A DNA stretch of 64,000 nucleotides from a bacterium (GCA_965213685.1 CBDBZY010000018.1:416001-480000); one strand, 5' to 3'; counted from the stretch's first letter, positions 1,661-59,069 are shown. Notes: generated by a model from the letters alone, not told the origin. Numbers and translations: made by a program.

Positions 1661-3939
1661 TATATTTTCTGCAGTGGCTTGTTTGCTATAGAGAGAAAGG
1701 TTAGTCTTGAGACAGTTGCTCTAGAGAGATATATTATATTAGACAAGAGGGACCTGCAGCTACACTATCTAGTTATAATCAACATGCTGTTTAATTAACT
1801 CTTAGTAGCAACTGCCTGGCATGAGAGATTGCTGGCTGATAATACCAGACAGACAAAAAGCCACAACAGCAATGCATGTGTGTACACACAGGGTGTATGC
1901 ATGGCTCAGCACCATGCTTAGAAACACAGAAATCAATAGCATAAGAGTAGCATATAAAGCTATTAATAGTACCTAAACTAGGGCATTGTGTACCCATTCA
2001 CCTTCCTATTTAAAGCCTCTTTCTCCCCTTCTTAACCAATCTTTGTTATATAGAGTAGTCAATCACTGCTTTGTTATCATTATGAAAATGGAATCAATCT
2101 AGGCTAATACACGAATGGCTTATAATTAGTAGCCTAATAGTAGGTGAAGTGGTGAGAGGAGGTTGGGAAAAGGCCTGGTTGTGAAGTGCTGTAGTTATCT
2201 GTGCCTGCTCTTGTGTCTTCACTCTCATTTTAAACAGCATGTTGACTTTCAAATTGCAGTTTTAATACTGTGCACCACTGCTATATATCTGAACTTTGTA
2301 CCCACCTTCTTATGTGATCAGTGGGCTACATGTGCAGGATTTTGAGTTTGCCAGGGGAGGGACACCAAAGTACATCCCCAGCATGGGAGACTAGGAACGT
2401 GACCTCAAGAAAACATACACACTCCATAGGTGTTGGAACTGGGGGGGGGGGCTGGGGGTGCTATAGCACTCCCCACTTTTTACAGGAGGAAGTGAATAGG
2501 TCCACACCATCAACCCGACTGATGAGAGACGTGTCTGGAGGCAGTGCGTTGAGGTTATTATCACGATTGCCGGCATTGCGCAGTACTCTAGCTTGACCCA
2601 CTCATGCTATTTTAAGTGTATGGGCCCCACCCCATGGGAGTCCTTCCCAGACTGTATGTAACCCTGGGAACGAGACACAGGCATACCTTTCTATTAAAAT
2701 TGCATAAGTGTGAATACCGCTAATACTCATATAAGATGGTCTACTCAGTTGAGCACCCACTTATAAACATCTTCCTACACCTATGCACTCTGAGAATAAT
2801 TTGAGAGACATTCTCTGAATACTTGCAGCCACTTTATGGGGGAGGGGACGTAGTCACACATCAGGGTTCTATCCACTGGGGGGGGGGGGGGGCAGGGGGG
2901 AAGCTTCCCCCCTAAATCCCAAGCTTCCCCCCCAAAACTTGGTCACTGATCATGGCATCCAAGAGATTTTTGCTCTAAATCGCATCAAAAGTGACTTAAA
3001 GACATCTCAAAATCAGAAAAGTTCCCGGGGGATACTCCCCCAGACCCCCTACACAATGTGTACTTCTGTAGTAAGCTATTATATTCATTGCACCGTAAGA
3101 CACTTCCCCCCCAAAAATACTTTTCTAGATAGAACCCTGCACATAATATGGTACACATTTTGGATAGCCAAGGAAAGGTCCTTGATCTGCAGCACATGAC
3201 CTCATGTACACAATGACATGCTTTGAACAATATTTAATGGTCCGAAAAGTTAGACATCTCTATGTGCACTGAATGTGTGGTCTGTGTCTGGTGTTATTAC
3301 ATGAGGCCATGTGTAGAGGTCAGCTCACACATGCAGTGGACCAGTTGTAACCTCATGCACAGCATGTGAGGTAGAGTAAAGGTACTGACAGTCCATGCAC
3401 ACACCTGACTCAGAGTTGCAGTACAGGAGCTGATTGGTATATCCTCGACCTTTACTGTCCCCTGGGGCAGGAATGAAGCCTGTCATTGGCTGGTGGGTAG
3501 GACATTCTGCGAAACCTCCGATGGCAATCAAGTGACCATTAGGTAATGAAGTGAGACCTGACCTCACAGTATGTAGCATTTGGCCGGTGCTGACTCTTCT
3601 CTTCCATGAAAAGTTTTGGGAATTGAAAGCAAAGAGTTCTTTGCAGAAACCTGACTGACCACAATTACCTCTGAAGAAAAGCGCTTCATCTCGAAAAGTT
3701 GTTACCGCAGCGCCTCTGAGCCATGGAGGTAGTTCACCAATGGAGCTAATCTTTTTCCATGATAGCAATGTGCCGTCAAACACTTCTACTTCTCGTGGAA
3801 ATGTCACAGTTGTTTTGTGTTGAAAGGACTTAAGCAAGCCTCGAATCATATATAACTTGCTTTCCACTGAAAAGGTTGGGGCATCATAACGTGGTTCAGG
3901 ATGGTATGGGCCAGTTGACTGTGCAGGAGGCTCAGCCAT
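433..3939 (-). CDS. Kelch-repeat protein, copy A (exons ~3939-3405 and ~593-433; continues beyond window start)
   Basis: MAEPPAQ...EPRYDAP...LIAIGG...TNQLLY exon ends in a GT donor. Second exon WSTPPTTGRTPPP...VWFGGWDG...TNAVFILD has Kelch GG...W motifs and AG/GT ends. Paralogous to copy B. Confidence 0.8.
2425..2785. mobile_element. MITE with CATAGGTGT...ACACCTATG termini and 5-bp TSD CACTC (hAT5-like)
   Basis: Short TIRs; CACTC lies immediately before 2425 and after 2785. Confidence 0.65.
2862..3139. mobile_element. MITE with CAGGGTTCTATC...GATAGAACCCTG TIRs and 5-bp TSD CACAT (hAT5-like)
   Basis: Perfect 12-bp TIR; CACAT flanks both ends. Confidence 0.7.
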
Positions 3940-5165
3940 GGCTGGATCTGGGGAGAGGGAGGAGGGGGAGATAGCCACTGAGTGAAGTTTCACATGCACA
4001 TAGTTACTCATGTACAGTGTACATGTATGTGTGTGAGCATATGCATGTCTTGTCCAATTTCAAACACAGTGAAGCTTGTAAGCTACATACACTTGTGCAT
4101 GTGCTGTGGGCATACATCAACACACCTGTGTATCAGTTTATGGGAGAGTGTTTCTAGCTGTGTAAGCCAAGCTAGGCAAATGCAGTCTAGTGTTGTGTGC
4201 AGGTTCTTTTAGTCCATTCCACATGCAGGTGGCAGGTGGTTGCTAAGCTGAGTGGGGAAATCCCATCATGTAGCCCTTCTGTCTAACTCCACCCTTAAAG
4301 TGGTCTCTATATAGAGTGGGGGAAATCCCACAATGTTGCGCTAGCTCTTTTGTTTTGCTCTGCTTTCAATTCTCTGCTAATATGCTTGCATGAGGAAATC
4401 GCTTCATGCTATGGATTTTGTGGCAGCATACAAGGACATTCTGGGACCTTCTAAGTTCTAGCATTACTGGAAGTGTGACTGTGGACATTAGCATGATGGG
4501 GTAGGAGTATGCAGCAAGGAATGGTACAGTAGTGGCTTCAAGTGGTAGAAAACTGTGATGAGAAACCAAGTCAAGTGGTAAAGGCACGCTCAGGGTATTA
4601 TACCTACTCTTAGGGGAGGGGCTTGCTCAGATACACGACGGAGCTGAAGACAAATATATCTCGAGCGTTCAGGGCTCAAGAATCCGAGCGCTGTACGCTC
4701 AGCAGAGCAAAGGCTAGGGCCGCGCTTGCCCATGTCAGGAAGCAAGTGACGCTCGGACGGGCGATGGGGAAAGGGCGCTCGGACATGTGACGAGATAAGG
4801 GCTGACTGTGAGAGCTGGGCTTCAGACAACTCTAGTCCTACCATGCAATCACAAGAGTAAGAAATCTCGCCACTTGTTCCCACAGTGGTACATGTACATT
4901 GTGGCCCTGCGCTCGCTGCCGGCGGCGCATATGGTATTAAGGTAGGCGGGAGGTGTATACTCGAAACTTTTACAGCTTTGACTGTAAGCTTACTGTGGCT
5001 CACACTTTCTGTGTTCTCCTAGCCAGTTGAATGCGCTCTTTGTTTTCCCTTGCGCAGGGCGAGGTTCACTCTGATCTGTCCCACCCTTTGCTCAATAGTA
5101 TCCTAGAAGTATGCGGATATGGACGACAGTGGGTCTTATGCAAAACCGGAAGTTCTATAGGAAAT
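3265..5165. repeat. Segmental duplication block homologous to ~54015-56045 (Kelch first coding exon and upstream region)
   Basis: Colinear similarity ending at the shared motif ATGCAAAACCGGAAGTTC. Confidence 0.9.
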
Positions 5166-6236: not shown

Positions 6237-7718
6237 GTAGTAAAACACACGTAATATTATATATGTAGCTATTGATTAGGGGTTAATATATCATACTGAA
6301 ATGTATTCAAATGATCCATAATCAACAGCAGTAAATTCACAAAATCATTGACAACCACAACAATAACCTATAAGCACGTATTTGACATGTCACTTGCCTT
6401 TTCAACACTGTTTCTTGTACTTTGCACATACACTTATGCATGTGATTATGTGTATGCACTTCCATTAAATTGTCTGGGGCTAAAGCTGGGCTGGAGAATG
6501 CTAGCTAGGGAAGGGAGAGAGGGTGATAACAGTCCCTTCCCCTTTTCCGGGGGCCCATCTGTACTTGAATTGAAACCCTGGTAGTCTGCATGAGCATGAG
6601 GTGCATGCAGCTGTGGCAATGCATCCCTTTTTTCACCCCTTACTGGTGTGCAGCAAAGGTACACTGTACACATACTTCATCTCACAGAATATTCTGTGGG
6701 GGCTTGATCAAAGTTAAGTGCAAATGAGTACATATTTCCCTCTCACTGGACATACACCCCCTATTTCTTAAGTGCACTATTACATCATAATAACTATAAT
6801 TATATAGACAGGAGTTTGTACGGAACTTTCCAGGCAGATTATGAGAATAATGTTCGCGAAACTACCACCCGGAAGTAGTATAGTATATAGTGTGAAGACG
6901 CGGCGCGCCGCCCTGGCCCCGCTTACGTATCTATAAGCCAAGTAGACCTACATGTAGATGTACGTGTAGATGCTGGGCTCGTGTTCGTCTAGGGACACAG
7001 TTGGCCTAAGAGTGAGGATCGCAGCTGAACGGATAAAGGCTACAAGACTGTCGACAGACTGAGTGAGTTTTTCCGTGTTCGTGCACAGCCTGTTGATACT
7101 ACGTAGTAGCCTGTTGATACATAGTCAGGTGTCTGCTTACACGAGCACTGGAAAGGGGCAGGCCTGCTGAGCTGTGATTGTGTGAGGTGTATGTAGTTAG
7201 GTGCGTTGTGTTGTTGCCCACTGCCTCAGCGTCCATTGGCCCTCCTGCACATTTACTTGTATAGTGCAATGCCGCAGTCAGACACATACACACACATGAA
7301 TGCATAAGCATGTGAAGTGAATAGTTCATGTGCAGTGTATGTGCACTGTTCATGTGCAGTGCAGTGCTCTCCTTTCCTTATGGTGGCCCAAACGGGCCAT
7401 CCACTACCGTCTTCGGCAAGCTTCCATTTCCATCAAACTTCCACTTCCATAGAAATTCCACTTCCATAGAACTTCTACTTCCGTGGAGCTTCCACTTCCA
7501 TGATCTTGCCTTCCATTGCTTCGTTCGTCATGCGCTCACCACAATGTGCAGTGCGCATGCGCAGTTCAAATCGAATGGCTCTGTCACTGCACCCGCTGCG
7601 CAGATCGTCCTTGTTGGAGACGTCCATCGCATACAAATACGCCTCACCTTAGTGGATCTTCCGGGCCACTTGTGTATCTTTCTTCTTTGACTACAGCCTT
7701 AGCAACCGGAAGCGTAGC

Positions 7719-10700
7719 ATGGCGAGCAGATTCTCGAGTGCCCGGGAAACTGGAGTGAGCGATACTCGCAGGACTACACGTGCCGAAGGTTAGTATATAC
7801 CTTAGGGATTGTTCTATGATAAGCACAACTGCCTTTTGTCACTCGTGTTCCAGCAATGCGCCGTTATATGGCCGTAGCGGCAGCCAGCCGGAAGACTGCT
7901 GTGCCCAAAAGAAAGTCAAGTGATGTTAGTCAGATTTTGGAAGGCCAAGTGCAGGTGAGTAGTGGTCTTCTTCTGTATATATTGCATGCATAAGCCACGT
8001 TGTCACTACAACTGTCAACTACAACGCCTTACATATAACAACCGCGTTAAAGTTCAAAGAGAAAATTATTCTAGTGTGTGTCAGGCACACTTATAGGCAT
8101 GTGAGTAGCCATTGCACTTATGACCATAAAGATTTGAGTAGCCATATAAATGTGTGAAGTAAGGTGGTGATAGCAGATAAAAGCCAGAGCCAGTAGGTGA
8201 GGATAGTAAATACCATTAGGTCATACATAATTGGGTGCACAGTGAAGTATTTTTACACTTATACAATTATTTGAGTAAGAACTGCCTGTACCCCAATAGA
8301 TTTCTGTCAGTCGCATGATGTACAGTGCCTGTCATCAGCGAGGGAAGTTAGATCGATCCTGGAAATTGCAGAAGTTGTCCTTCCACAAGAATTTGTCCTA
8401 TCAAGCAGTGAAGAAGATTTGCCAAGAGGCGACATGGCCAGATGAAGAAGAAGGTACAACTTATTACTTGGCAGATGGATCTGGTGTCTCCATTGAGCAG
8501 GACAACTTTGAGCTTGTATCTGAGGATGGAAAGAAGAACACCATAGCTTGGACATTAGCCAACTACCTCGAAATATCCCACATCAAGTATCCATCTCGAA
8601 CACGGCTCTACTGTGTCAAGGTCTCTAAAGGTAAACAAATCAAAGCCTCAATGATATTTTGACCAAACTGTTAACATCTTCATGCTGCAGAGGATGCAGA
8701 GAATATACAGGATGATGCTTCTGAAAGTAAGTCAACATTTCAAACAAAACATATGCTTTTAACCTCATGCGAGCGATGTATTCACTCCTTACATATTATC
8801 ATTAGATGTTTTGTTGTTTGTCATGTCATTACCTTCTTAGAAGACTCTAGTAAAGTTGATGCATCAGAACCAGAACAACAAGAATTGCAACCTCAGCCAC
8901 AAGACAATGAGCCTTCTCCTTTTGGTATGATGCAACGTGACATCACTCTCTCCTCAATTCTGGTGTGAATACCACTTGCTGCATTGTTAATGTTTTGAAT
9001 GCAGATTCACCTGAGGGATTCTTTCAAGTGTACTTTGTAGAGAAAACTGCGAGCAGATACAGCAATCGCTTTGCCTTTCGCCATGGCTTGACACAGGAGG
9101 AAATCCTGTGCTGGCGTTTGCTGGATGATCCAGACACCATGATGAAGTACAGGGATATTGTGGCTTCTAGTCCAGGGGGCCAGTACCGTGTTTTGGATCA
9201 AAACCCTATTCACCTTGGATTCTTTTTGAGCACAATTGAGCAAGGAGGTAAAATTATCAATATGTACATGACAGGAGCATATTGTAAGTATACTACTTGT
9301 ATATCACGTGTAGTATACACATGTGTATTCGTATGTGAGTTTGTACATTTGTAGTATACTATTATGTCAGTTATGATTGTCCACCTCATTAATCACTGAT
9401 TCAGGAAAAGAAGTATGTGACCTAATTGATACTGTATCATGTGAGAGTGGGGAAGTTGCATACAAGTCACCATGCGAAGGTCAGTATCAGTACATTAATA
9501 TGTATTATGGGTATGTACCTTTGATGTATTCCTTCATAGGTACAAAACTTGAGATATGGTGTGGTTGTTATGCATCACAAGCAGACAGAAGGGCATGCAT
9601 GGCTTGTGTGGCATTGGGGGGAAATCACTCTCGATCTGCATACCACTGGAAACGAAATGGGGAACCAGTTTTTGAAGAATCTCCACTGCTTTATGCTGAC
9701 TCTGAGGGCACCTACGAGTGCCAAGTGACCAGTGCTGGTGAAGAGTGCTCAGGCGTGTTCAGGATTGATGGTTTGTTGTAATGCATTTACTTCATTCTAT
9801 TATCTGACTGAAACAAGATTTATATACAGGTACCAGGAGTGGAATAAGAGTTGAACTTGTAAAGGATGACCCCATGGATGTTGAAGGTAGTAATGCTATA
9901 GCGTTTTGCAATTTACTATAATAATAAGCAAGCATTTTTTGCAGTCACACAAGAGAGAAATGTGTCAGTGCATATGCAGAGTTTAAGGACAGAACCTGAA
10001 GGGACAAGTGGGACACAAGTGTCCAAAATCACTGAAGTTGACTCTCAGCTTGGTCAGTTGTAAGAAGTGACCTTAAACATAAGCATGTGGTTGAACTCTG
10101 CACATTTGACCTGAAGTTGCAGATTCAGCATGTCAAGACACCCTAGTGAGTGCAAATCTGTCTGAGCTTAAACGCTCACTACAAACAGGTGAAGGTAAGC
10201 ATCCAAATACAATGAAATTGCGTGTCTTGTAATGAGCAATTCTTGCTGAAGGTTGCCAAGCTCTTAAACTCCTGGATGTTCTTGGCAGTGGTAGTTTTGG
10301 AAGAGTGTATCGAGGAGTGTGGCGTGGAACTATGGTGGCAGCAAAAGTGATTCCTATGCCCAAGACTGACAGGAGAGTGTGGGAGAATGAGATTGCTGTC
10401 TACAGGTTAAATGACATTACTAGTATATCATTTGCACAATTATGTATCCATAATGCTTTCTGATGCAGGACACTCAACCATCCCAATATTCTTGCACTCC
10501 TTGGTGTTGTATCGGATACAACGTCAATAACACTCATTACAAACCTGGTGAATGGAAAAGACTTACATTCTCTCATTTTCAACAATGACAAGGATGTACG
10601 TGATGCCAGTTAGTTACACAATAATCTTTTCACCTTTTCCAAACTTTTGGTACAGATTTCATTCTCTACAAAGATCTGGATCATAGTTCAGGTTTGCCAG

Positions 10701-11277
10701 GCCCTTGTGTTTATGCATACAGCAACACCTCCTGTTATCCATCTTGACTTGAAGCCAGCTAATATACTGGTGAGTTAGTAAGGTTCAGCAGTGATACAAA
10801 GTAATAGAAAAGAAGTACTTTTATGAAATAGTGCAAAGTGCATGAGTATGATTATGAAGATAGATGTTTATGTATTTCATATAGGTGGAGAACAAGACAA
10901 TGCACATTTTTTTGGCGGACTTTGGTCTTTCAAGGATCTTAAGTGACTGTGACCTGGTTGGCTCAACAACCATGAGAGCAGGAACACCAGGATTCCAGGC
11001 TCCAGAACAGCTCCAAGGAAAAGGAATATCTCCCAAGTCTGATGTATATGCACTAGGTGGTGTCATAACCGAAGTGTTTGGAGAAAAAGTACTCTGGCCG
11101 AAGATGCCAGCCCACAGGATAATGTTTCGTGTTGCTGTTGAAGGTGTGTTTCCTTCTACCAAGCATCTACCACAAGTGATACAAGAGGTGACAAGCCTGT
11201 GCTTCATTGGGAGTGAGGCTAGAGCCGATGCTGCCACAGTTCTTGCAAAAGTACTGGACATGTGTTGTGACAAGTAA
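7719..11277 (+). CDS. Multi-exon protein: N-terminal domain + Ig-like domain + TKL (RIPK-like, non-RD) protein kinase, inside the transposon
   Basis: Exons at ~7719-7788, 7854-7954, 8300-8630, several short exons, 9540-9770 (LEIWC...YHWKRNG...GTYECQV), 10252-10405 (LGSGSFG, VAAK, E), 10469-10594, 10655-10768 (HLDLKPANIL), 10885-11277 (DFG, GTPGFQAPE, SDVYALG). Phases checked at the first and kinase exons. Confidence 0.9.
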
Positions 11278-11392
11278 TCATTGATGTCATATAACTCAAC
11301 TGCTTAGCCCAACATGCATGACATATACCTGCAGTTCTTTGCACACCATAATATCACTTATTGCATATTACATATCAGACAAAGAGAGACAT

Positions 11393-14300
11393 TCACTGAA
11401 ATTCATTAATGAGGTTGAGATAGAGAGTAAATGATTCTTCACAGTTATTTGGCATGTACCAATCGTTTTCGTCCATTAAAAATTAATATCAACTAGCTCC
11501 AAAAACTCAATGCAAGCAGGTGCTGGTTTTACAGTTGAATACTGCTGGCAATACTGCAGATCTTGGGCGTCACAAGCACACTGGCATTCTTCATAACCTG
11601 TAATAATATATTGGTCACCAATGTTAAGGGTAAAAATTTGAGGATTACCCTGCAAAGAAGGAATGTTGTACAGCTCTTCAGGTATACCACTAATGCCACC
11701 TCTCCTACACCGTATGAGATGGGTATTCCACATTTGAGCAATGTCATCCAATTCTGCTTGGAGAATGCCCATAAAGGCAAACCGAATGCAGTCACTGCAC
11801 ACAAAGAGTATAGTATCAGTGTTACCCCTACACCTATAAAAAGTGTTAACATACACATACACATGTATTGGACTGGTTTCATCGAAGTGTCCATTGTCTT
11901 TCAACATCTACATTGAAGAATACATAGTGAATATATGAAACAATTACAATAATGCTTCTATAAACAACGTACTTTGAAAAATTCCAACCACCAGTCAGTA
12001 CACCACTCTCGCAATGTACACCAAAACCTCTCAATTCTCTATAATCATATATATATAATAATTATATAAACACTACAAGTAAGATTTTTTTGTTGCCATA
12101 TTGTCACTAGTTATGTTACATGGTGGAGTTGATCATGTTTTCTACACTAATGTATACCTAGCATGCGAAATATGACCCACTGCATCCCAACAATAGTCTT
12201 ATTCTAAACTTTTGTTAGTGTGAAGCCCATACTTTTTCTGATGTATACACTCCAGTCACATTCAATGTGATTTTGAGTCTAACTGAGTAACTGTCTTGTT
12301 TGACAGATCTGACTCCTTCAAGCAGTCGCAACCCATGCTTCCTATATATGTAATGTACTAGTGCTGACCTGGTTACTGACAGACTTTCCATACTGGAAGC
12401 TCTTTCTTCCTGCCATTGAATCTTGTCCATTTCTTCTCAGAAATGGTTGTAAAAATGCCACTCTAACATTTTCTGTACCTCTGTCAGTACGAATAAGTCT
12501 TGGAAGCCCTAGAGCAATGTGAAATATAAGTAATGTGCACCCCAAAGATATACAAGTACCATATCTCTCAACAGCTTTCAAGTAGTAGCCTGCAATAACA
12601 GCAGGATCTTTGTTTGTGGTGGCAATTTCTAGCCACAAGACTTTTCTGGAGAACCTGTAAGAGATTATGGTGCACTGTAAAAACGGAAAGGTTACTTTCA
12701 CCAAGTGTGACTAAAGTACCAGTTCCGTTAGTGTATGAAACAAACTTGGCAAGATATATTTTACCACCAGCGGTGATTTTAACTTTTCCAGTTGTTTTAA
12801 ACTTCATTGAAAAATGTACCTTCCTAACATGTAAAGTAACCATAATCACAGTGCTTATGACATACTAATTACTCTGGTAATATTCACCAAAACCCCTGTT
12901 GCTTTGACCTCCAAGACAGATAAAAACAAACTGTGCATTACTACATTTACTACATTGCACAGCCTACTGATGAGTCCCGGCGCAGTACAAGTAAGGGACG
13001 AAAAGGTCGTCAAAGTGACCTTCTAGGCTTTTGAAATATTATTATATTGTGCAAAAGTTGACATTACAAACACACATTTTCAACATACGCATACACTTAG
13101 AAAGCATGAAAGTACTCTTTCAAATAAACATACAGAATGTCGGATTTTCTGTGAGCATGGAGTATCGTATGAACTTTCAACTCAGAAAAACACACGTATG
13201 ACTGATCAGCTGTGTGTGCAATCACAAAAGCATGATAGTGGTCATCGTAGTACTCCACAGAACAGTGTAACACGTGCAGTACGATGATATCCACCAACAC
13301 AAGTATATCAACTATTCTGGCAAAGGCTGGATGAAGTCCATCACATCCTGTTATTATGTAGGCATTCCTTTTGATGGTATTCCCCAAGTATTTCACCCAG
13401 TTTGGGCGAGTTGTTGGTGTTTCACTACTAATACTAGGGAGAAGAGATGTAAGAGAATTTTGCACATGGGGAGGCATATTTCTAATCAAGATGGGTTGAT
13501 CACATGGTCCACATTGTAAAGGTGAATCCAACAGATTTCCAGTTGAGAGCTCATAGCATAAGAGCCGCTGATGACAATTAGCAATGCTATATGCTATGTT
13601 TTTAAAATTGCCCAGTCGAGAAGCTTGCTTAAAAATATTCAACTTTGCTTCATTGCGCATATTCCATGTGCCAATCATTGGACCAACATTAAGGATTTGT
13701 GTTGGGTAATGAAATAAAAAATGAAACTTTGGGGTGACTGCTTCAGCAGTGTACATTTCAATGAAGGATCGATGGTGTTCCTCAATTGTAACTTTTAGAA
13801 TAGCACAAAGGTCAGGAGATGACCATGAACACAAAGCTAGATCTACAATCTTTGAGAGCAATAAAAATCATTTCCACTTCTGATCATCAAGAGGAACAAC
13901 GTCACCTATGAGGAGTGGAAGAATTCTAACAAGGAGTAATGACTGTGATGCGGACAGTTTGAGAGATTTTGCGTTTTGTAATGTTAAACGTGACCCAATT
14001 GGTTGTGGCTTGCTTATTTCAGTGTATTCATAATCAAAGTGTATCAGGCGGTGATTGTATTCATCAAGATTGAGGTATTGCTTTGATATTAAACAGTGCT
14101 GCAGTAGTAAACACATCTCTATTGCAGCAACTCCCTCAAGTAAATCATGCATGACATCATGCGCCAGTCCACCATTAAAGAGTGAAAAGTGGGATACTTC
14201 TAATAGAGAACTGCGTCTGTTTATTCCATATGTTTTGGAGAAATGATCATGCAAAGGACCATTGAGTGAATCGCACTCTTGGCAATGCTTTTCATCAGAG

Positions 14301-17300
14301 CGGAGTTCTAATTGAGAGGAGTCAGAGAGTGTTTTAAATACATCCTGAGTCACATAGCATGTTCTGCAAAAACGGAGAGAAAAAGAAAAAGACTCCTTGA
14401 ATCCCCCAATCGTATTGCTACCTAAATTATCACCCAAACACAGGAGGAGTCCGCCATAAAATGTTCTCTCGACACCAGGTTGTGTTACAACTCTAACACC
14501 TTCTGCTGCTAAGATATTCAGATCCTTAACAAAAGGTTTCAAAATCTCATCGATCCCATAGTTTTCCACCAATGGGACAGTAGCTGCTATTGCGAGATGT
14601 ATTGCTCGCAGGGAAGAGCGGTACTTAGGGTGGATATTTCCCAATGTAAAGAGAACAATTGCAAGTTTATGCTTCTTGACATGGGTCCCCAGTGGATTAC
14701 ATAACTCAGGCTCATCAAAGAAAGCTATAATTTGCAAGGCACAGGGATCACTTGCAAAGATAGGGTGAGTTTTGAATCTAATACCATCACAATAATCCTC
14801 TATGATCCCATCACTGTGAACTCGGGATGAACACTGTTCTACCTCATCCAGGACGGCAGCATCAGACAAAAGTGACTTGAGGGAAGAAAGGAGAGGAATG
14901 TATTGGTATTGGTCTTGCCTTGCAATTAGTCGCCTCTTTACTCCAGTAAAGACTGGTTCATAGTATGGGTCGCCAATGTTAACTTGCTGAGGTTCCTATG
15001 AGTAATGTGTGTGTGCATGCATGCATGCAAGCAAATGGGGATAAATGAAACAAGATTCATTTCCTGTAGGAAGCTGTCTGTCACATGGCTTCTATGTGTA
15101 CCATTTGTGATAGTATACTGCAAGAAATACCAAGTATGTTACTTCAAAATTGTTTTGTGCCTGACTTGCTAAACTTACCACTAGTCCAAGCTCTTCACAA
15201 AAGTATTTCTCCTGGAGGTAGCGAGCTTCCAGTCCTTCAAAAGGGCTTGGAGTGTCTTGAAAAACTTCGTCCAGACCATGAATTCCACCAACATCTATTC
15301 CAGCAACAGCAAGTGTATCCCGAACTCTGGCACCCATTTGCTGCTTCACTTGAGAGAATAAGCCATCCCAACCCTGCACAATATCATCAATTGCATTCTG
15401 TGAGAGCCTTCTATGCTCTTTCAGTTTCAGGAGAAACAAGGCTGATGATCGTTTTTGAGTAGCTTTGTCTGTGCCAAGAAGGTGACTTAGGTCAGCATGA
15501 AATCCTTCTGCAAAGAAGGTGCATACAGATACTTAGTTCAAAGATGAAGACCGGATGAAAGCATGAACAGGTAGTCATAATAGAGCAACTTGCAATCAAT
15601 ACCTGGCAAATCCTGAGATGCCGCAGCCGGATGTGCACCAGAAACCAAGGCAGATTCGACCTCCTGAGGAATGCTCAACTGATGTTCTCGCTTCTGGATT
15701 ATTCCGTCCTCGGGGTGGCGGCGGTAGATGTGAGAATAGAGTGCAGAAAAAGATCTACCCGTGTACGCACATCCACCAATGCCGCACTGAACACTGAATC
15801 TAGGGTCACTACTATGTAGTAGACGAAGATGGCTAAGATTTCGCGCCATCGTGGGTGACTCGAAGTGACACATGGGGCACTTGTAGCTACCAGCTGTGCC
15901 GCCTGACATTTCCAGCATGATTCGAGTAGATCTCCAATCCTACCAAACGGGCAATTAGCGAAGCTACGCCCATTGCACACGCATGCGCGGTAGGCGTACG
16001 ATGACGCTGCATATATTGGCGGGATTGCGAGGGTTTGCCAAGTGCAGCAGACGGCCCGACGTTACAGGGAAGCTAAGGATACGTGTACTTGGTGTCTACA
16101 GGGTGCAGCGCGAGTGGGCCACTTGAAAGCCGTCCTATTTGGCCCGAGTAAAATCGACCGCGGACGTGACGGAGTTATGGCATGTGAGACGTCCAACGAC
16201 AAGTCGGACTTGACCAGCAAAACAGTAACGGAGCTCAGCGCGTGGCTTGAAGAGAAGGGGATACCACAGGAGTTTTGCAGAGTATTTGAAGGTAAAGGGA
16301 AACGCTTTGTCTTGACATTCTTACCACATCTGGGTTAAAGGCCCCCCCCTGTACGTTTAGTACACCCAAGGCGCATGTCTATTTGTACCATACGCATGGG
16401 TTATATTATCTGCGTAAGTGTATTTTCACCTGTTTACGTGTGGTTACGTGCCGCGCGGATTAGGCGGTGGGCTAGAGGTGTTAATTTGCCCTTGTGGTGT
16501 TTGTAAAAGCTGACCCCTGTGGTTGCCAGGCTACTAATGCTCGTTTCTACCTGCTAGACAATTACATTGATGGAACTGAGTTTGTGGCCTTATCTGAAGC
16601 AGAGATCAAAGAAATGGTTCCACCTATTGGTTTAGCCAAGAAGATTATGAAGCTTGTTCCCAAGGTAGGCACTTTGTACCTTGTGGTGATTTATGTGAAT
16701 TCTATTGACTCTTGGTTGTCCTGTGTTTTTTGAACTTATTTCAGGAGCCAGTACTGCTGTCAGCAGGCAGCAGTGGACACCTAGCTTCCAGCTCTGTCAC
16801 ATCGCCCCTTAACTCACCTCCAGCTTCACCATCCTTTTCACCGACTTCTTGTGGTCCTGGATCTCTGTCCAGTGTTTCCACTACACCTTCTAGGTCAGAC
16901 AAAGTTTGTATCCCTGACTTCTGGAGAGAGGACACCCAACGCTGCATAGATGAGGGAGTACTTGATGATGCCAGTCGCAGTGACATTGTGCGCACACTAG
17001 TGACACTTCTTGTTTCCAAGTATGGTCCAAAGCCAGGTAGAATGCGACTGGAGGAGCTGGGAAGAGCACTGATATTGAAGTATCCCTTTATGAAGGACGA
17101 TCTTGGAAATGGATATGTAAGTAGGTGTATACTCAATTACTACTGAACGTTTGATAGCTATGGATGAGTTATAACTCATTGCTTATCACCTTCAGATGTG
17201 TTTTGGTTGTGGAACTCCTTTTCCTTTTCTTGAGTACATTGACCAGCTGCATGTAACTCAGTGGGAAAAAGTACATGTATTACTCACATATGTATACTTC

Positions 17301-20144
17301 ATGAGTATCGACTTGTGGTTTGGTAACTACAGAGTATGTCTGTTTCTGAATTTCTCTTCTGAGAAATCTGGCACAAGGTACCTCTCAATTTTCAACTTTA
17401 TATTCCAGGCATCATGGGTAGATAAGATGAAGGAGTGTCTTGAAAACCGGCTAAAAATGAGCAGAAGAAAAATGAAGAGGCAGGGAGATACAGCCAGCCC
17501 TAGTGCAAAACGTCAGCGGAGCTCCCATCCTAAAGATCACTTGCTGCAACGGTCAGTATTTGTTGAACTTCCTACGTCTAGCATGCAATATTTCATAGTA
17601 CTTATTAATTGTAGGTATCCAGTACGAGTACAAGATGTAGAATCTGAGGACCCAAGAAGTGTGGTAGAGCATAACAAGGCCCTGTGTGAAGAAATGAAGA
17701 AGCCAAAACCTAGAGACGCCCTCCTTTTGCCATTGATGAAGAAGACCTTCCAAGACCGGAGGATTTTCATTCAAAATGATGCATCTACAGTTGTGGAGAT
17801 ACTGGAGCACTACCCAGCTATGGCACGACCAGCAGTGGTAAGCCTCGTTTTGAGTACTACAATAGAATAGGCATTGCTAACAATTTTCGGGCATTACTGA
17901 TGGTGTTGCTGTGCATGGAGGGCCTGAGGTACACAACTGACAATTAATTGAGGCCTCTACCTTCCTGTACAGATTGAACAGGAAATTGCTCTTATTGTCG
18001 GAAAGAAGGACATTCGAACCACATTTGAATCATCTTGGGTGTCCTCTTATGTGCCTGCCCTTCTCCAGTATGGAGAAAGGAGCAAGAAGAAGGCAATAAG
18101 ATGTATTTATGGGCAACTCATAGAGTCAGGTACTAATACAGAGACACCTTACCTGTGTATTTGTGCATGAACAGTCTCTTACCATGTTTCTGCAGATGAT
18201 ACGTCCAGACAAGTAACTGCTTTGACTCTGTTGGTGGCGTGTATGAAATGTCCAACTGAAAAGGATGTTAACCCTTTATGCTACCTGTATCAGCAATACG
18301 ATGTAAGTACTTGATTTGAATGTGGAATGGAATAATTATTGTGTATATACTATCTGGTGCAAAGTCACATACAAATTATGTGTTCTTTCATCTAGGTTAC
18401 TGAGACACCTGAGCACGTTTGTCGGGAGACAACCTCCCGGAATTCTCCAAGAATAGCTGCCTTCATTGGAGAAGAGTCTCAACAATATTTTATACTCCTT
18501 GAGCAGAGGGTCCTCTGCCAGGTTTCATCACTTCAGTTTGCGTTATTCATTATGTTCAGTGCTTACTATACATTTCATTTGGAGTATCCTAAGCCTGTGA
18601 AGAATGTCATGCTATTTCTTCAAGATTATGTGTTGTCATTTCCAGATGGGCAGCGTAGACCTGCCACTTACCTTGCCACTGCGTCTGATATTAAGAAACT
18701 CTCTCTTTGACTAATTGTTTTTCGTGTTTTTCACTTGTACTCAGGATTTTTGTAGAACTCAATCCATGTTTTTGTGACTTCACTAACTGTGGATAGTAGT
18801 TGTATATGCTTGATGAGGTGAATAGTGGTAGATATCACATGGGGGTGTAAATTAACTGAAAGTGTGTTGGTTAAGGTTAGTTACATGAAGGTAGTAGTAC
18901 TGGACTGTGGTAGTTTTTGCCACTAACAGGTGTGGTTAAATGGCAGTAGAAAGGGTGTTTTTCTTCTTATAGTAACATGAGAACAATCTTTGGAGTGGTT
19001 TCTTTACACAAGTGATACAAACTTTAAAACTCTAAATAAAAGGATTACTTGTAACTTTTAATTGGATTAAATAATCTGTGATTGGTGGTACAGCACACTT
19101 CAAACATTAGGGTTAGTACAATCCATCAGGGAGGTAGTTTATCCTTCCTTAACAGTGAAAAAACCCTACATTATGTTGTTTTAAACTCTGTCATTACCAG
19201 TTGATTTTAACTCTTCCTGATTACTCTCAACCACTGTATGGATATGAATAATCACATTGTGAGAGGGTGACTATCACCATTAACTAAGAAGGGGATATGT
19301 AACCACTTTGTGGGTTGCCTGAGTTGCAGGTGAAGTCACCCAATTTTTATGGTTGAAGTAACCATTTCTTTTTTACAGTGTGGTTGCCTCACAGGTTTAG
19401 GTATGACCTCTGTCCAAATGGTATACACACCCATCTATGCAGCCATGGATTGAAAATCCATATGTCTTCAGTTTGTCATTCCCATCCATATGCCAGCAGA
19501 AATTTGGCCCCTAATATTGATATATATATACTAAAGTTACATACAACATAAAACAGATGATATTTCTATATACCTTTGAGCTATAATTCCTTCTCACAAG
19601 CCGATGCTTTCTCCTCAGTCTTACACTCTCTGGATCAATAGCTGCTAGTGTTTGCCTCACAAATTCCCTAATGAAAAGTTATGTCCTTTTCCAGCAGCAC
19701 TTAAATCCTGCATACTTAATAGCATACCTTGGTACTCGAATTTTGTATTTCCTTAATAGCCTCAAGTGCAGAGCTCGATAGCCCAGCAGGGAACCAGACT
19801 GACTGAGTTCAAACTACATAGGTATAGTGTAAGGCTCGTTTGTGACATAACTCTACCAGTTAACTGTGATGTTGACATATACTTACCATTATACACCTTC
19901 CAACGTGCTGTAGATCACTGTAACCTCCTCTTCTTCTCAACTGTTGCCTTTTCAGACTACGCTTTAATGTCCTAAGGGATATGAAAATACCATACACCGC
20001 AACCAGGAAGCATAAAATCAGTTCGTATTGGAAGCCTTCGTCAAAAAGACTTCGAAAAATGTCGTCCCTTGACAGTCCATAAGGAAGAGGTAGAGCATTC
20101 ACCGTCTCCAAGAGAGTGCAGAGCGCTACTGCAAATACCGCCAT
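11393..20144 (-). CDS. IS3EU-type DDE transposase/integrase, about 10 exons, one intron expanded by the EnSpm insertion; probable frameshift near the C-terminus
   Basis: Exons ~20144-19886 (ISLRTLKRSLK), 19816-19729 (GYRALH), 19665-19575, 19510-19430 (WHMDGNDKLKTYGFSIHGCIDG), 12654-12560 (FSRKVLWL), 12508-12370 (IRTDRGTEN), 12038-11972 (RIERFW), 11907-11862, 11795-11650 (WNTHLIR), 11597-11393. Confidence 0.88.
13097..15918 (-). pseudogene. EnSpm-type transposase with N-terminal C2H2 zinc fingers; one in-frame TGA at 13868-13870
   Basis: Exons ~15918-15603 (CPMC..H, CGIGGC..HIYRRH), 15508-15179, 14995-13097. Motifs FFDEPELCNPLG, GDNLG, FCRTC, DVMHDLLEG, TPKFHFLFHYP, MRNEAK. The two long ORFs are in the same frame, separated by one stop. 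Confidence 0.85.
16177..18710 (+). CDS. EnSpm second gene: N-terminal SAM domain, SAMD3-like protein (about 8 exons)
   Basis: TVTELSAWLEEKGI..FE/DNYIDGTEFVALSEAEIKEMVPPIGLAKKI is a SAM fold; later LILKYPF, LMKKTFQDRR, LEHYP and YYTFHLEYP motifs; GT/AG-bounded exons. Confidence 0.8.
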
Positions 20145-20594
20145 GTTTAACAGCTATAAAGATAAACACTGCGCATGCTCAGGATGCATGATCGCATGGC
20201 CAAGGGGCGTGCAAAATGAAGGTGATGGAAGTGGAATCACCATGGAAGTGGAAGCTCCACGGAAGTGGAAGTTCTATGGAAGTGGAATTTCTATGGAAGT
20301 GGAAGTTTGATGGAAATGGAAGCTTGCCGAAGACGGTAGTGGATGGCCCGTTTGGGCCACCATATTTCCTTTTCCTTGTCCTTTTTTTCTAGAAGGTGAG
20401 CTGTTGCGTGTGCCTAGTTTTGGGGTTGTGTTTGTGTGCGACTTGTGTATGGATGGTAGATGGTCCACATGGGTGGTGAGAGTTGGTGCACCATCAAAGA
20501 TCTTTAAGCCCCATTCCTAACTCTTAAGGTTGGGCATGTGGACCATCTGCCTTCTGTTCTGTTCTTATATGTGTAGGCTTGTTGCTTTCCCCTT

Positions 20595-20780
20595 TTCTAA
20601 GCCGTTGAGGTTGTTAGAGATATATATCTTTCTAAACCAATGAAGCTGCTGTACATATCTATTTTTCTAAGCCGTTGAGGTTGTTACAGATATTTCTAAG
20701 CCGTTGAGGTTGCTAATATTTCTAAGCCGTTGAGGCTGTTTCCAGATATTAAACTATATATTTCTAAGCCCCGAGGTTGT
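20595..20780. repeat. Irregular tandem repeats of TTTCTAAGCCGTTGAGGTTG (about 5-6 copies)
   Basis: Motif recurs near 20595, 20663, 20693, 20719 and 20761. Confidence 0.75.
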
Positions 20781-21779
20781 TGCGGATTTAGGTTTGTTGT
20801 ATAGCGTGTGGTTCTTCTTTCTTTCTTCTCTGTTCTCTTTCTCTTTCTGCTTATTGTGGTGCACTATGCACGTGATTGTTCATGTAGAGTGTGGCAGTGT
20901 GAGAGTGGCCAAAGTGTACTGGGCTGAGTATATGTGTCACAAGACCTGTAAACTTAGACCTCCTTTAGACAAGCCAGCCTTCATGGCCGCCTGTGTATTC
21001 GATAGCTGTGTGCCGTGTACATTCAGATCTGCATGTAGGCACTGATACACACCATTTTTGTTCCATTAGCCTCGCAACGGCAGGTTTTGATGTGGTGTGT
21101 TAGTTGCCAGAGCTCTGGACATTGGGAACATGTGTAGTGGGACACAGGTTGAGGAATAGACCCATTGAAAATGAATATACAGCTGCCATGTATAAACACC
21201 ACATCACTGCCAAACACGGCATTGTTAGCTTGACGCATGTTAAAGAGGATGGGGAGGAAGAGTGAGCAACAGTCTTTTTGAAGACACTACACTGGCTGGC
21301 ACAGGATTTGATATTAAAGAAAGTGTATAGGATTGGACTGTGCTACTGTAAAAGATTTCCCAAAGCTGAAAAGCTTTTGCAATTCAGCATGTGATCTTTA
21401 GTGTATGGACTGGGGTTGAGGGTCAGATGCATGCAGATATGTACATAGGTTATTGCTGGCCAGAGGTCTACATTATCCTTCCACTCTCTCCCTGGTAGCT
21501 CATAAGGATCACATCCCACAACTTGAATTGTGTCAGCATAGTGTCACTTCGACTCTGCATCAGCTACATGTATGCTAGTCACGTATTCTGGGAGAAAACC
21601 ACTTTCCAGATGTTTACTCAAAGCCATACTCACTAGGTATTTACGTGTGCGTGTACACTTTAGTACACCAATATGGCACATAGCAACCGTTGCCATGCAA
21701 ATGTATGAACCATGGCATAATATGCAATGGGTCTACAGCAATGCTGAATCTGTTGAAAGAGGTACAGCATGAACATGTG

Positions 21780-32771: not shown

Positions 32772-39774
<7,003 letters not shown>

Positions 39775-40487
39775 CTGTTCATGTAAAAGGAAGTAGCAAT
39801 ACTAACGGTAAGGGCAGGCAAAATCCAGTATAATTGCTAAGTGTAGTAAGCAGATGCGGCACTGCCTGCACTTTATATATATTCACACTATAATTTTTGG
39901 GGGGTTATTCCGATGTCATAGTATTGTGTTTACAGTGCAGTAGTGTGATTGTCCGCCGTTACTGCATAGCGCTTCGAACGGCACGGTCGTAAAAACAGCG
40001 TTCGTACCCGCACTCTCCGCGGTCTTCCGCAGATTGGGCGTGGCCTGCTTTGGCCTCTGCCTTCGCAGCTGCGTCTTTGGAAATAGCAGAACGCTTATAT
40101 ATGAGAGCTTTACGTCCCTTGGCGTGTTGAAGGAAGTAGCGCAGGCATCAACGCAGCATATAGCGCATGCGGAACGAGGTTGAACGTAACATTTTGCTCA
40201 TGGGCGGTTATTGACTTTTTACTCACACCCTGAGGGTCAAGGTTCACAAGACCACCTTGAAGCTGGCAACAGGTGTCAAACAACGTGAAGAAGGACGATC
40301 GCGCGTTTCATGAGCGGCCAGAATGATTACTGACGCCGAACTCAGAACGACTGACAGTACGGACAATGGACTGCCTTTACCCGAAACCCTCACAGAGCAA
40401 AATTGTAAGTATAGTATCTATGGATTGCGTGGGAACTTCACCGCTAAACTCCAAGTTGTGACCAAGCCTTCGTGTGGCTCTCTCATG

Positions 40488-59065: not shown

Positions 59066-59069
59066 GTAA

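Follow-up and report, generated by a model that had tools for sequence, protein, structure and literature searches.

Does a protein kinase gene found between the ends of a eukaryotic DNA transposon belong to that transposon, or has it only been caught inside it? The question is raised by a locus in a stretch of 64,000 nucleotides (hereafter the window) of contig GCA_965213685.1 CBDBZY010000018.1, in which the ends of an IS3EU-type element enclose an integrase gene and a protein kinase gene. Few superfamilies of eukaryotic DNA transposons have been studied as little as IS3EU, whose structure and function are described as largely unexplored. The described elements encode two proteins (PMC8232023), have TA..TA termini and usually a target site duplication (TSD) of 6 bp, and form one lineage with GingerRoot (PMC10045372); their ends have been given as TAYGG..CCRTA (PMC12730594). 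In rust and truffle families the transposase is accompanied by an oppositely oriented alpha-kinase gene, with or without a TET/JBP gene (Kojima 2025, PMC12730594). GingerRoot elements have terminal inverted repeats (TIRs) of 100–150 bp and a TSD of 6 bp, and 22 of 77 were reported to carry pieces of host genes, all of them fragments (PMC6839031).

The assembly is filed as bacterial and is mixed by GC content, with contigs of ~65% GC alongside others of 42–53%. The contig studied here is animal host DNA contaminating it, the animal source being probably a demosponge, which is a practical caution for users of the assembly.

Ends of the element and its insertion

The element measures 12,986 bp (7379–20364 of the window) and has the ends TATGG..CCATA. 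Its left TIR (7379–7502, plus strand, 5' TATGG) and right TIR (20241–20364, minus strand, terminus CCATA), both found by repeat search and direct reading, are 124 nt long and 99% complementary, with 123 of 124 positions identical and the sole mismatch within one subterminal repeat. Read directly, both ends open with TATGGTGGCCC; they contain TTCCAYTTCCAT subrepeats at a spacing of 17 bp, which are putative transposase-binding sites. The 12-mer TTCCACTTCCAT was matched seven times in the window, always within the two ends (0.01 matches expected). The target duplication, TTTCCT, was read directly on the left (7373–7378) and on the right (20365–20370) and is exactly 6 bp long, the seventh base being mismatched. 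The flanks of the element consist of repeats.

Contig C18 of the same assembly holds two paralogous copies of the flanking repeat that are unbroken at the insertion point (C18:365662|365663 and C18:558638|558639), with a single TTTCCT each and running straight from 7378 to 20371. Because these two sites are uninterrupted, the whole 12,986 bp must have been inserted as a single unit: it entered TTTCCT as one piece, duplicating the target. The TIRs with one mismatch and the perfect 6-bp TSD of the preliminary description are thus supported by direct reading and paralogous sites alike, and the latter also bear out its proposal that the kinase gene moved with the element at least once. The near identity of the ends fits a young insertion. 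A contig of public run X5 that joins 7379 to 20383 was considered as an allelic empty site and discarded, since it matches the paralogous flank at C18:558639 with one T fewer.

The integrase gene and the nested transposon

The integrase (transposase) gene lies on the minus strand in 10 exons, with GT-AG borders in nine of nine introns, and converges on the kinase gene. Exons 1–4 (20144–19887, 19813–19728, 19667–19574 and 19510–19431; together within 19431–20144) contain the first D of the DDE triad, in WHMDGNDK, while exons 5–10 (12654–12560, 12508–12369, 12038–11973, 11907–11861, 11794–11649 and 11597–11476; within 11476–12654) contain the second D in RTDRGTEN and the E in NQRIERFW. All three residues could thus be placed in the spliced model (WHMDG, RTDRGTE, RIERFW). 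The Pfam family rva_4, whose cut-off is 26 bits, was matched with 30.1 bits on exon 4 and 26.1–26.3 bits on exons 5–6; no zinc finger was matched in the Pfam scan of the N-terminal exon. As a lead, the nearest clusters in a protein atlas were rva_4 and then bacterial rve. The DDE stretch printed for GingerRoot (PMC6839031) aligns by eye with exons 4–7.

In the window copy, a 5-bp insertion near 11480 shifts the integrase frame close to its 3' end, at a cost of the last ~28 codons, and the severed tail follows out of frame on the minus strand (11393–11482, 29 codons and a TGA). The five extra bases are missing in runs X1 (17.7 of 17.7 depth) and X7 (5.82 of 5.82). The distance between the convergent stop codons, previously put at about 115 bp, is right for this unbroken form, which ends at 11393–11395 with 115 nt to the kinase stop; it is wrong for the frame of the window copy, which ends at 11476–11478, 198 nt away.

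The second peculiarity of this copy is a nested transposon of 6,708 bp in integrase intron 4 (12673–19380), with termini CACTG..CAGTG, an imperfect TIR of 31 nt and a 2-bp TSD (TG), which takes up half of the interior of the IS3EU element. It contains two divergent genes. That on the minus strand (13097–15939) codes for a large protein with C2H2 fingers followed by a Transposase_21/Plavaka-like core, interrupted by a TGA at 13868–13870, where four of four runs have 13868 T>A. Its Pfam match to Transposase_21 is weak (E 0.054), and as an atlas lead Transposase_21 or Plavaka appeared in a minority of the match sets. The other gene (15994–18710, plus strand) is spliced and belongs to no recognised family; a SAM-domain-like name considered for it was dropped, the Pfam scan being empty. 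Another copy with both genes was found at C18:190911–199665 with the TSD CA, so that the same termini and a 2-bp TSD are found in two of two copies. The nested element is probably of the CACTA/Mirage/Chapaev (CMC) kind, which is characterised by CACTR termini, a TSD of 2–4 bp and a transposase of Transposase_21 type. A reading as Transib with a 5-bp TSD was abandoned, as the joint in the run contigs and the C18 copy both give 2 bp. The preliminary description was silent on the nested transposon and on the 5-bp insertion. Intact autonomy is not supported for the window copy, whose integrase loses its frame towards the 3' end and has an intron swollen by the 6.7-kb nest.

The element in public runs and the search for further copies

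Contigs of four public runs from four studies tile the interior of the element piecewise at an identity of at least 99%, covering the stretch that leads from the left end into the kinase gene, and the one that leads through the integrase gene, past the place of the nest, and enters the right end. One contig of X1 is unbroken over 7446–10713, reaching from the left end into kinase exon 12, and shows 4 differences over these 3268 letters. One contig in X1 and one in X5 pass directly from 12669 to 19380, omitting 6710 letters. Since run contigs are free of the nest and of the 5-bp insertion, the basic element is of ~6.3 kb; it consists only of two convergent intron-bearing genes, each starting beside one end. 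It is compact, with 812 bp preceding the kinase ATG and no other spare DNA. The run contigs break within the ends and so may represent the same locus in other individuals. X1 also holds another copy of kinase exons 10–12, ~89% alike (36 differences and 5 gaps in 330 letters). Other joints, 7568 to 7687 and 7712 to 7846 (with sides of 26) and 7216 to 21047, were left out of consideration, being probably due to repeats or paralogs.

Further copies were sought in the 7.97 Mb of the assembly, which is animal DNA only in part. Blastn with the whole element gave three rows there, made up of the self-match and the matches between its two ends, and with the spliced integrase and kinase as tblastn queries no family member appeared beyond the element. 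The rva_4 profile gave two additional weak matches below the cut-off, in contigs C51 and C64; that in C64 is a degenerate piece of integrase with no kinase within 15 kb. No match was obtained with the integrase piece in viral contigs, and genome and viral contigs likewise gave none when searched with a 24-mer and a 20-mer from the terminus. As no second copy was present in the 7.97 Mb or in the contig collections, no insertions with different TSDs were seen.

Structure of the kinase gene

The kinase gene (8315–11277, plus strand) has 13 exons, at 8315–8630, 8691–8726, 8841–8924, 9005–9247, 9405–9479, 9540–9770, 9830–9886, 9945–10052, 10123–10194, 10237–10405, 10469–10595, 10656–10769 and 10885–11277, and codes for 674 amino acids. 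The model is based on GT-AG borders, found in 12 of 12 introns, on a relative in the sponge Halichondria panicea and on Pfam Pkinase, and has 674 codons free of internal stops. The pair of a spliced kinase gene and a convergent integrase gene within the ends is therefore as first described, with all 12 and all 9 introns bordered by GT-AG. By reading of the model, the N-terminal introns of the kinase gene are all of phase 1.

The protein is made up, in order, of a weakly ubiquitin-like N-terminal domain, an acidic linker, an uncharacterised domain, an Ig-fold domain (exon 6), a linker and the kinase domain (exons 10–13). The catalytic core is complete, with the G-loop GSGSFG, VAAK, ENE (the alphaC Glu), HLDLKPAN, DFG and APE, so that the claim of an intact gene with its catalytic motifs retained, from the G-loop through APE, is upheld. 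Judged by sequence, the kinase domain is of the non-RD, TKL type. Exon 13 matched Pfam Pkinase with an E-value of 7e-12, and the matching families were Pkinase and PK_Tyr_Ser-Thr, with alpha-kinase absent from the Pfam matches. The closest solved structures by sequence were CTR1 (8e-29) and TAK1 (9e-24). The kinase had been called RIPK-like, a name that we do not retain: the solved kinases nearest to it are CTR1 and TAK1, RIPK was not among the 16 PDB sequences with E of at most 1e-20, and the Pfam scans of the kinase exons and of the H. panicea relative gave no RHIM, death, CARD, TIR or ankyrin modules.

For the Ig domain the evidence is a structural prediction. The exon-6 model has seven strands with a pLDDT of 87 over an underlying alignment of 2 sequences, and Foldseek returned Ig-fold proteins in the rows inspected, with probability 1.00, query-normalised TM of 0.56–0.76 and a best E of 4.4e-3, for the cytosolic Ig2 of MALT1. 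Pfam Ig_3 and Ig_2 were matched below threshold (E 0.018–0.025). The predicted structure is a two-sheet Ig sandwich, in agreement with the Ig domain proposed at the outset. No signal peptide or membrane span was seen by eye in the kinase protein, and the Ig-fold domain is hence taken to be cytosolic. The ubiquitin-like matches of the N-terminal domain were weak (E 0.25, probability 0.8) and provide a lead.

Relatives of the kinase

Among the matches listed, the sole full-length relative of the kinase came from one locus of H. panicea, LOC135337876, annotated as a single locus with five isoforms (XP_064389956 and four more). Its 767-residue protein (P0001) is collinear with the window kinase over 726 columns at 38% identity (E 7e-159) and matches Pfam Pkinase with E 3.6e-39. 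The collinearity runs end to end and therefore points to long-term constraint on the entire architecture. The two share the order of domains from the N-terminus to the kinase and the non-RD catalytic loop, and differ in that the H. panicea gene is annotated as an ordinary locus and has a longer, repeat-rich linker ahead of the kinase. The catalytic loop was non-RD in each family member examined, as HLD in the window kinase and in proteins P0042 and P0112, and as HMD in P0001.

Beyond this the family is hard to find. With the non-kinase part as query, nothing beyond the query's own cluster appeared among 1742 candidates. In an exhaustive search, the N-terminal part was matched by four of the best 150 proteins listed, all four being short fragments, and exon 1 matched none of 42 candidates among longer proteins. 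In metagenome contigs, exon 13 found just two distant loci (40% and 25% identity), outside the kinase family, and a search of a genome contig collection with P0001 gave no related locus. The kinase family thus appears to be very rare and patchily distributed even within sponges. The single H. panicea locus with its five isoforms is compatible with a host gene or a fixed element alike.

Why is the kinase in the element?

That this is an IS3EU element which took the kinase gene along on moving is very probable. For the further step, that the kinase is a retained accessory gene of the IS3EU lineage, we see about even chances, and the same balanced judgement applies to the entire account, a damaged IS3EU/GingerRoot copy in a probable demosponge with the kinase as accessory gene. 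According to this account, the transposase would bind the TTCCAYTTCCAT repeats at both ends and the element would have moved by cut-and-paste. The kinase would be the standing second gene of the lineage instead of a fresh passenger, a functional counterpart in sponges of the fungal IS3EU alpha-kinase, and would most likely act in trans, its substrate being either the transposase or some host factor that controls excision, repair or silencing. Being an ordinary protein kinase and not an alpha-kinase, it cannot have been inherited from the fungal arrangement and must have been captured at some time.

The mere fact that an acquisition must have occurred, the fold being unlike that of the fungal partner, also opens the way to another history, in which a complete host kinase was recently acquired at the DNA level, is of no benefit to the element and is intact only through youth. 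GingerRoot relatives do take up host sequence (PMC6839031), the H. panicea relative with its one locus and five isoforms resembles a normal gene, the phase-1 introns are as in shuffled animal domain exons, the ~89%-alike copy of exons 10–12 in X1 could be the parent gene, and multi-copy evidence was absent from the 7.97 Mb searched. However, the captures described for the superfamily are fragments, never whole genes (PMC6839031), whereas in the 6.3-kb element the complete gene of 13 exons, upstream region included, stands precisely where the second gene belongs and is oriented as that gene would be, with no other spare DNA. Without it the element would have one gene, while the described IS3EU elements have two, and the rarity and patchiness of the family among sponges fit a mobile gene better than a conserved gene of the host. 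A recent, useless capture is for us a real but doubtful possibility. A trivial origin, by assembly chimera or by two independent solo ends around a resident host kinase gene, might be suspected from the repeats in the flanks and from a contig in an assembly of such mixed GC (~65% vs. 42–53%), but it is contradicted by the two continuous paralogous flanks with their one TTTCCT, by ends alike at 123 of 124 positions and by the piecewise coverage of the interior at 99% or more in four runs from four studies; its probability is practically negligible.

The retained kinase might also have another target. As the preliminary description proposed, the kinase could be a selfish effector that interferes with cell death, innate immunity or the DNA-damage response of the host, and not a regulator of the transposase. 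A link between non-RD kinases and innate-immune signalling is known, and the catalytic loop is of the non-RD kind in all family members examined. For the Ig-like domain, which would itself be cytosolic, the fold search ranked the cytosolic Ig2 of MALT1 first (E 4.4e-3), and the closest solved kinases, CTR1 and TAK1, are of MAP3K type. This argument is one of resemblance, though: dozens of unrelated Ig domains match the fold just as well, and death, CARD, RHIM and TIR domains were not found in the Pfam scans, so that we regard this role as unlikely.

If, as in the accessory-gene account, the kinase is a regular partner in animals as in fungi, with different folds, a phosphorylation requirement in IS3EU transposition would be suggested, and the compact 6.3-kb two-gene element would be a test system for it. 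A cut-and-paste element would then be able to move and copy a whole multi-exon signalling gene in an early-branching animal, and such a mobile kinase would bear on the growth of sponge kinase families. A more general proposal, which we think rather unlikely, is that the IS3EU group depends on kinase partners, with unrelated folds recruited independently (alpha-kinase in fungi, ubiquitin-like/Ig/TKL in sponges), transposition being switched when the transposase, or a host factor of repair or silencing, is phosphorylated, and the elements being one driver of the large lineage-specific TKL expansions in sponges.

Comparison with known systems

The sequence features place the element in the IS3EU/GingerRoot superfamily, every feature compared being in agreement, and the IS3EU type first given to it is confirmed by the rva_4 integrase, the TAYGG-type ends, the 6-bp TSD and the 124-bp TIR. 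It shares with the superfamily an IS3/integrase-type DDE (rva_4) without an HHCC finger, the 6-bp TSD and the two genes; TATGG..CCATA fits TAYGG..CCRTA and the TIR falls inside the 100–150 bp of GingerRoot. It differs from the published descriptions in its second gene, a multi-domain ordinary protein kinase. In the literature searched it is the first sponge IS3EU element, and animal second genes may already have been named.

The closest parallel is that of the fungal IS3EU families, in which a kinase gene also partners the transposase, in opposite orientation and between the same kind of ends. The partners are non-homologous, alpha-kinase there and Pkinase/PK_Tyr_Ser-Thr here, and the window element differs also in its animal host, its intron-rich genes and the absence of a TET/JBP gene. 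The Tc1/mariner TBE transposons of Oxytricha have a 57-kD zinc-finger/kinase ORF (PMC4724952), and by the title of that article their ORFs are under purifying selection genome-wide. They are likewise cut-and-paste transposons with a kinase-domain protein beside the transposase, but they differ in host kingdom, in domain composition and in the superfamily to which the transposase belongs. With Pack-MULEs and fragment-bearing GingerRoot elements the likeness is in the intron-containing, host-like coding DNA between transposon ends, but their captures are fragments, in contrast to the whole open 13-exon gene found here together with a retained transposase. The preliminary statement that such an element was not known to have been described is thus not supported, in view of the fungal alpha-kinase IS3EU elements (PMC12730594) and the TBE kinase ORF (PMC4724952). 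As the fungal families already pair the transposase with an alpha-kinase, the sponge element is a variant of a known arrangement and not a new system; what is new is the unrelated kinase fold as IS3EU partner, in an animal.

Structure and Target Site of the Element

The IS3EU element occupies positions 7379–20364 of the window (12,986 bp) and ends in the 124-nt terminal inverted repeats (TIRs) noted in the preliminary description, located at 7379–7502 and 20241–20364 and differing by one mismatch. Both ends start with TATGGTGGCCC and each is bordered by TTTCCT. The flanking DNA is itself repetitive, and two paralogous copies of the flanks in the same contig (CBDBZY010000018.1, hereafter C18; junctions at C18:365662|365663 and 558638|558639) are continuous across the insertion point: the base preceding the left end is joined directly to the one that follows the right duplication, and TTTCCT is present once. 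The 12,986 bp were therefore inserted as a single unit that created a 6-bp target-site duplication (TSD), which bears out the perfect TSD claimed previously. Within each end there are TTCCAYTTCCAT subrepeats spaced 17 bp, and this exact 12-mer appears 7 times in the window, always in the two ends (expected 0.01).

The landing site is a repeat of at least 2 kb with at least three copies in C18 that are 89–98% alike (window 6379–7378 and 20371–21400; C18:364777–366069; C18:557616–559045). Part of the right flank (ca. 20428–20928) is a very high-copy repeat, with a depth of ca. 6500 in the public sequencing run X1 vs. ca. 21 for the element. The terminal 11-mer TATGGTGGCCC was found at 13 places in the assembly, vs. 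ca. 4 expected by chance according to our estimate, including sites at C41:377141–377791, C41:218192, C64:97974, 158390, 880781 and 1621097, and C51:43030 and 415781. Several have further common sequence (TATGGTGGCCCACAGGTATATTTGCGAC...) and two of those in C41 face each other ca. 570 bp apart. Judging by these sequences, they may be non-autonomous IS3EU-type elements.

Integrase and Kinase Genes

The ends enclose the two convergent spliced genes already described, an integrase gene on the (-) strand with 10 exons (exons 1–4 at 20144–19431, exons 5–10 at 12654–11476) and a kinase gene on the (+) strand (8315–11277) with 13 exons and 674 codons without a stop. All introns, 9 and 12 respectively, are GT-AG. 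The integrase frame of the window copy ends at 11476–11478 and is followed by an out-of-phase frame of 29 codons ending at 11393–11395; the distance of ca. 115 bp between stops given before holds for this second stop, while for the window copy as it stands it is 198 nt. The Pfam family rva_4 ("integrase core domain", cut-off 26 bits) scored 30.1 bits in exon 4, 26.1 in exons 5–6 and 13.9 in exon 9. The nearest protein-atlas clusters were rva_4 and then bacterial rve, with Mollusca and Cnidaria among the few rva_4 clusters that have a taxonomic record. In the published descriptions, IS3EU has TA..TA termini and a TSD usually of 6 bp (PMC10045372), with ends TAYGG..CCRTA (PMC12730594), and GingerRoot has a 6-bp TSD and TIRs of 100–150 bp (PMC6839031). 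Judged by these descriptions, our element has all the features reported as defining IS3EU and GingerRoot, i.e., TA..TA termini of the TAYGG..CCRTA form, 6-bp TSD and 124-nt TIR, and the IS3EU-like assignment stands.

The kinase gene model was confirmed by its end-to-end alignment with a 767-aa protein of Halichondria panicea (P0001, LOC135337876; 278 identities in 726 columns, E 7e-159). An alternative exon-4 donor yields a stop and was rejected. In our reading of the model the introns ahead of the kinase domain are all phase 1. Pkinase and PK_Tyr_Ser-Thr (Pfam) matched exons 10 and 13, and also the H. panicea relative. The closest solved structures by sequence were CTR1 and TAK1, then EGFR, CDPK and Lyn, with no RIP kinase among the 16 solved-structure sequences at E ≤ 1e-20, and the label RIPK-like is not supported. 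The catalytic loop is HLD, not HRD, as in the protein relatives P0042 and P0112 (HMD in P0001). Non-RD kinases are linked to innate-immune signaling. Exon 6 is predicted to adopt an Ig fold: in its AlphaFold model (pLDDT 87, from a 2-sequence alignment) the Foldseek rows inspected were Ig-fold proteins with probability 1.00, led by the second Ig domain of MALT1 (E 4.4e-3), and the Pfam Ig models fell below cut-off. The model of exon 1 (pLDDT 75, 4 sequences) gave weak ubiquitin-like matches (E 0.25). Exons 4–5 form a conserved region, and neither signal peptide nor membrane span was seen by eye in the protein.

The kinase family appears to be rare. Exon 1 matched none of 42 candidates among longer proteins, and residues 65–385 of the H. 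panicea protein matched, among 1742 candidates, only its own cluster (5 isoforms of a single locus and two short fragments without a name). An exhaustive search using the entire protein as query returned 492,629 kinase-domain matches; among the 150 listed, the N-terminal part was matched by four (P0010, P0021, P0071 and P0088), all short fragments from assemblies. P0042, a 157-aa fragment from contigs of 1.4–1.5 kb with 66% identity to the window's kinase, is unbroken across the positions of introns 11 and 12, and may derive from a spliced transcript or from a copy without introns in another sponge.

A Transposon Nested in the Integrase Gene

Exons 4 and 5 of the integrase gene are separated by a 6.8-kb gap, intron 4, that would measure ca. 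70 nt without its insert. The insert is a separate transposon (12673–19380) with CACTG..CAGTG termini and an imperfect 31-nt TIR. It codes on the (-) strand for a large zinc-finger protein placed by the protein atlas near Transposase_21/Plavaka clusters (Pfam Transposase_21 at E 0.054), in a frame interrupted by a TGA at 13868–13870. A second, spliced gene is divergent from it and had no recognized family in Pfam. A distant copy of the gene pair at C18:190911–199665 also has termini of the CACTG type, and the TSDs of the two, each of 2 bp, are TG (window) and CA. In X1 the CACTG-ended family reaches a depth of 95.5, ca. 4.5 times that of the IS3EU element (21).

Versions of the Element in Public Runs

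Part of window 7200–17199 was present in 20 rows of 12 studies, at least half of the sampled words in 8 of them, and none of the rows was an RNA run. We compared the contigs of four runs (four organisms, four studies) with window 6400–21400 at 90% likeness. One contig each in X1 and in a second run, X5, passes directly from 12669 to 19380 and so leaves out 6710 letters (3 ambiguous), the length of the 6,708-bp nest with its 2-bp duplication TG. There are therefore nest-free versions of the IS3EU element, and its basic length is 6,276 bp (12,986 - 6,710). Besides, the X5 contig leading into the nest from the left includes 68 letters there that do not match the window, which suggests a different location of the nest in that organism. 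At 11480, where the comparison rests on X1 and a third run, X7 (X5 has no coverage there), 5 letters are absent at full depth (17.7/17.7 and 5.82/5.82), which by codon arithmetic fuses the integrase frame with the 29-codon tail. At 13868 all four runs have A instead of T, so that the nonsense codon of the window's nested copy becomes a sense codon.

In X1 also the left end is contiguous with the kinase gene, since one contig spans 7446–10713 and differs from the window at 4 of 3268 letters. A second X1 contig matches 10384–10713 with 36 differences and 5 gaps, and a further form without 67 bp of intron 12 was found in X1 and X5; to judge from these contigs, the kinase gene, at least in part, is present in a second, diverged copy. 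Coding differences from the window (in the kinase an I>V and a synonymous change; in the integrase G>R and F>I) were too few for dN/dS. Since the run contigs break within the ends (7446 and 20297), these runs may hold the same insertion or others.

Origin of the DNA

The assembly (GCA_965213685.1; 71 contigs, 7.97 Mb) is filed as a prokaryote. Its contigs are of two G+C classes, many of ca. 65% and a few large ones of 42–53%, among them C18 (813 kb, 45%), of which the window covers positions 416001–480000. This mixing is greatly understated by the quoted 3.68% contamination. The window contains spliced genes and long open frames with matches to ZU5, COR, Kelch repeats and LINE-type reverse transcriptase, which makes it animal DNA contaminating a bacterial bin. 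C18 at least, with its spliced genes, LINEs and DNA transposons, is of animal, sponge-like origin. The kinase has its best protein relative in a demosponge, H. panicea, and runs labeled sponge and coral-reef metagenome share a small fraction of the element's words, both of which point to a demosponge host without proving it. Contigs C41 and C7 gave, by tblastn with the kinase, several kinase domains, each as one unbroken match of ca. 200 aa; these look intron-less, and the mid-GC contigs may come from an organism other than that of C18.

The long open frames at 37056–39778 (-), with ZU5 and COR-A (Roc-COR) matches, look like a large death-fold/ROCO-type signaling gene, a kind expanded in sponges. 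Two Kelch-repeat frames of similar make-up (3325–4059 and 54077–54982, both (-)), ca. 50 kb apart, are probably a duplicated gene. LINE-type retrotransposon copies with reverse-transcriptase and endonuclease frames lie on both strands at 57258–61550.

Possible Role of the Kinase

A two-gene element between long inverted ends has moved in one piece, and versions without either defect of the window copy (the integrase frame stop and the nested-frame TGA) exist. The DDE transposase would bind the subterminal repeat arrays and cut and paste the element, and the kinase, transcribed from beside the opposite end, would be its second gene. Whether it is a retained accessory gene is for us evenly balanced. 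In favor of this reading, the gene is whole and occupies exactly the second-gene place, the 6.3-kb element contains nothing else, the family is patchy, and fungal IS3EU families also have a kinase opposite the transposase (PMC12730594). That kinase is not homologous to ours, which would rather fit a fresh passenger, a possibility that we consider real but clearly less probable. Relatives within the IS3EU/GingerRoot superfamily capture host DNA (PMC6839031), H. panicea has a single locus, and multi-copy evidence was not found, the 7.97-Mb assembly, partly animal DNA, having no further copies of the kinase-bearing element. Our first guess for the target of the kinase would be the transposase or a repair or silencing factor, and the second host death or immune signaling.

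Comparison with Known Systems

The preliminary description knew of no such element. Of an ordinary protein kinase in an animal IS3EU element we likewise found no description in the literature searched (Repbase, Kojima 2019 and supplementary tables were outside its scope), but a pairing with a kinase is already published: the single statement that we found, in PMC12730594, concerns IS3EU families of fungi in which the transposase is paired with an alpha-kinase in opposite orientation. The arrangement is similar, although the ordinary protein kinase of our element and the fungal alpha-kinase are different proteins. The TBE transposon of Oxytricha, with a 57-kD zinc-finger/kinase ORF (PMC4724952), is an unrelated precedent for a kinase in a transposon. 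More generally, a 2012 meeting report notes conserved proteins of host origin in DNA transposons from several superfamilies (PMC3520738).
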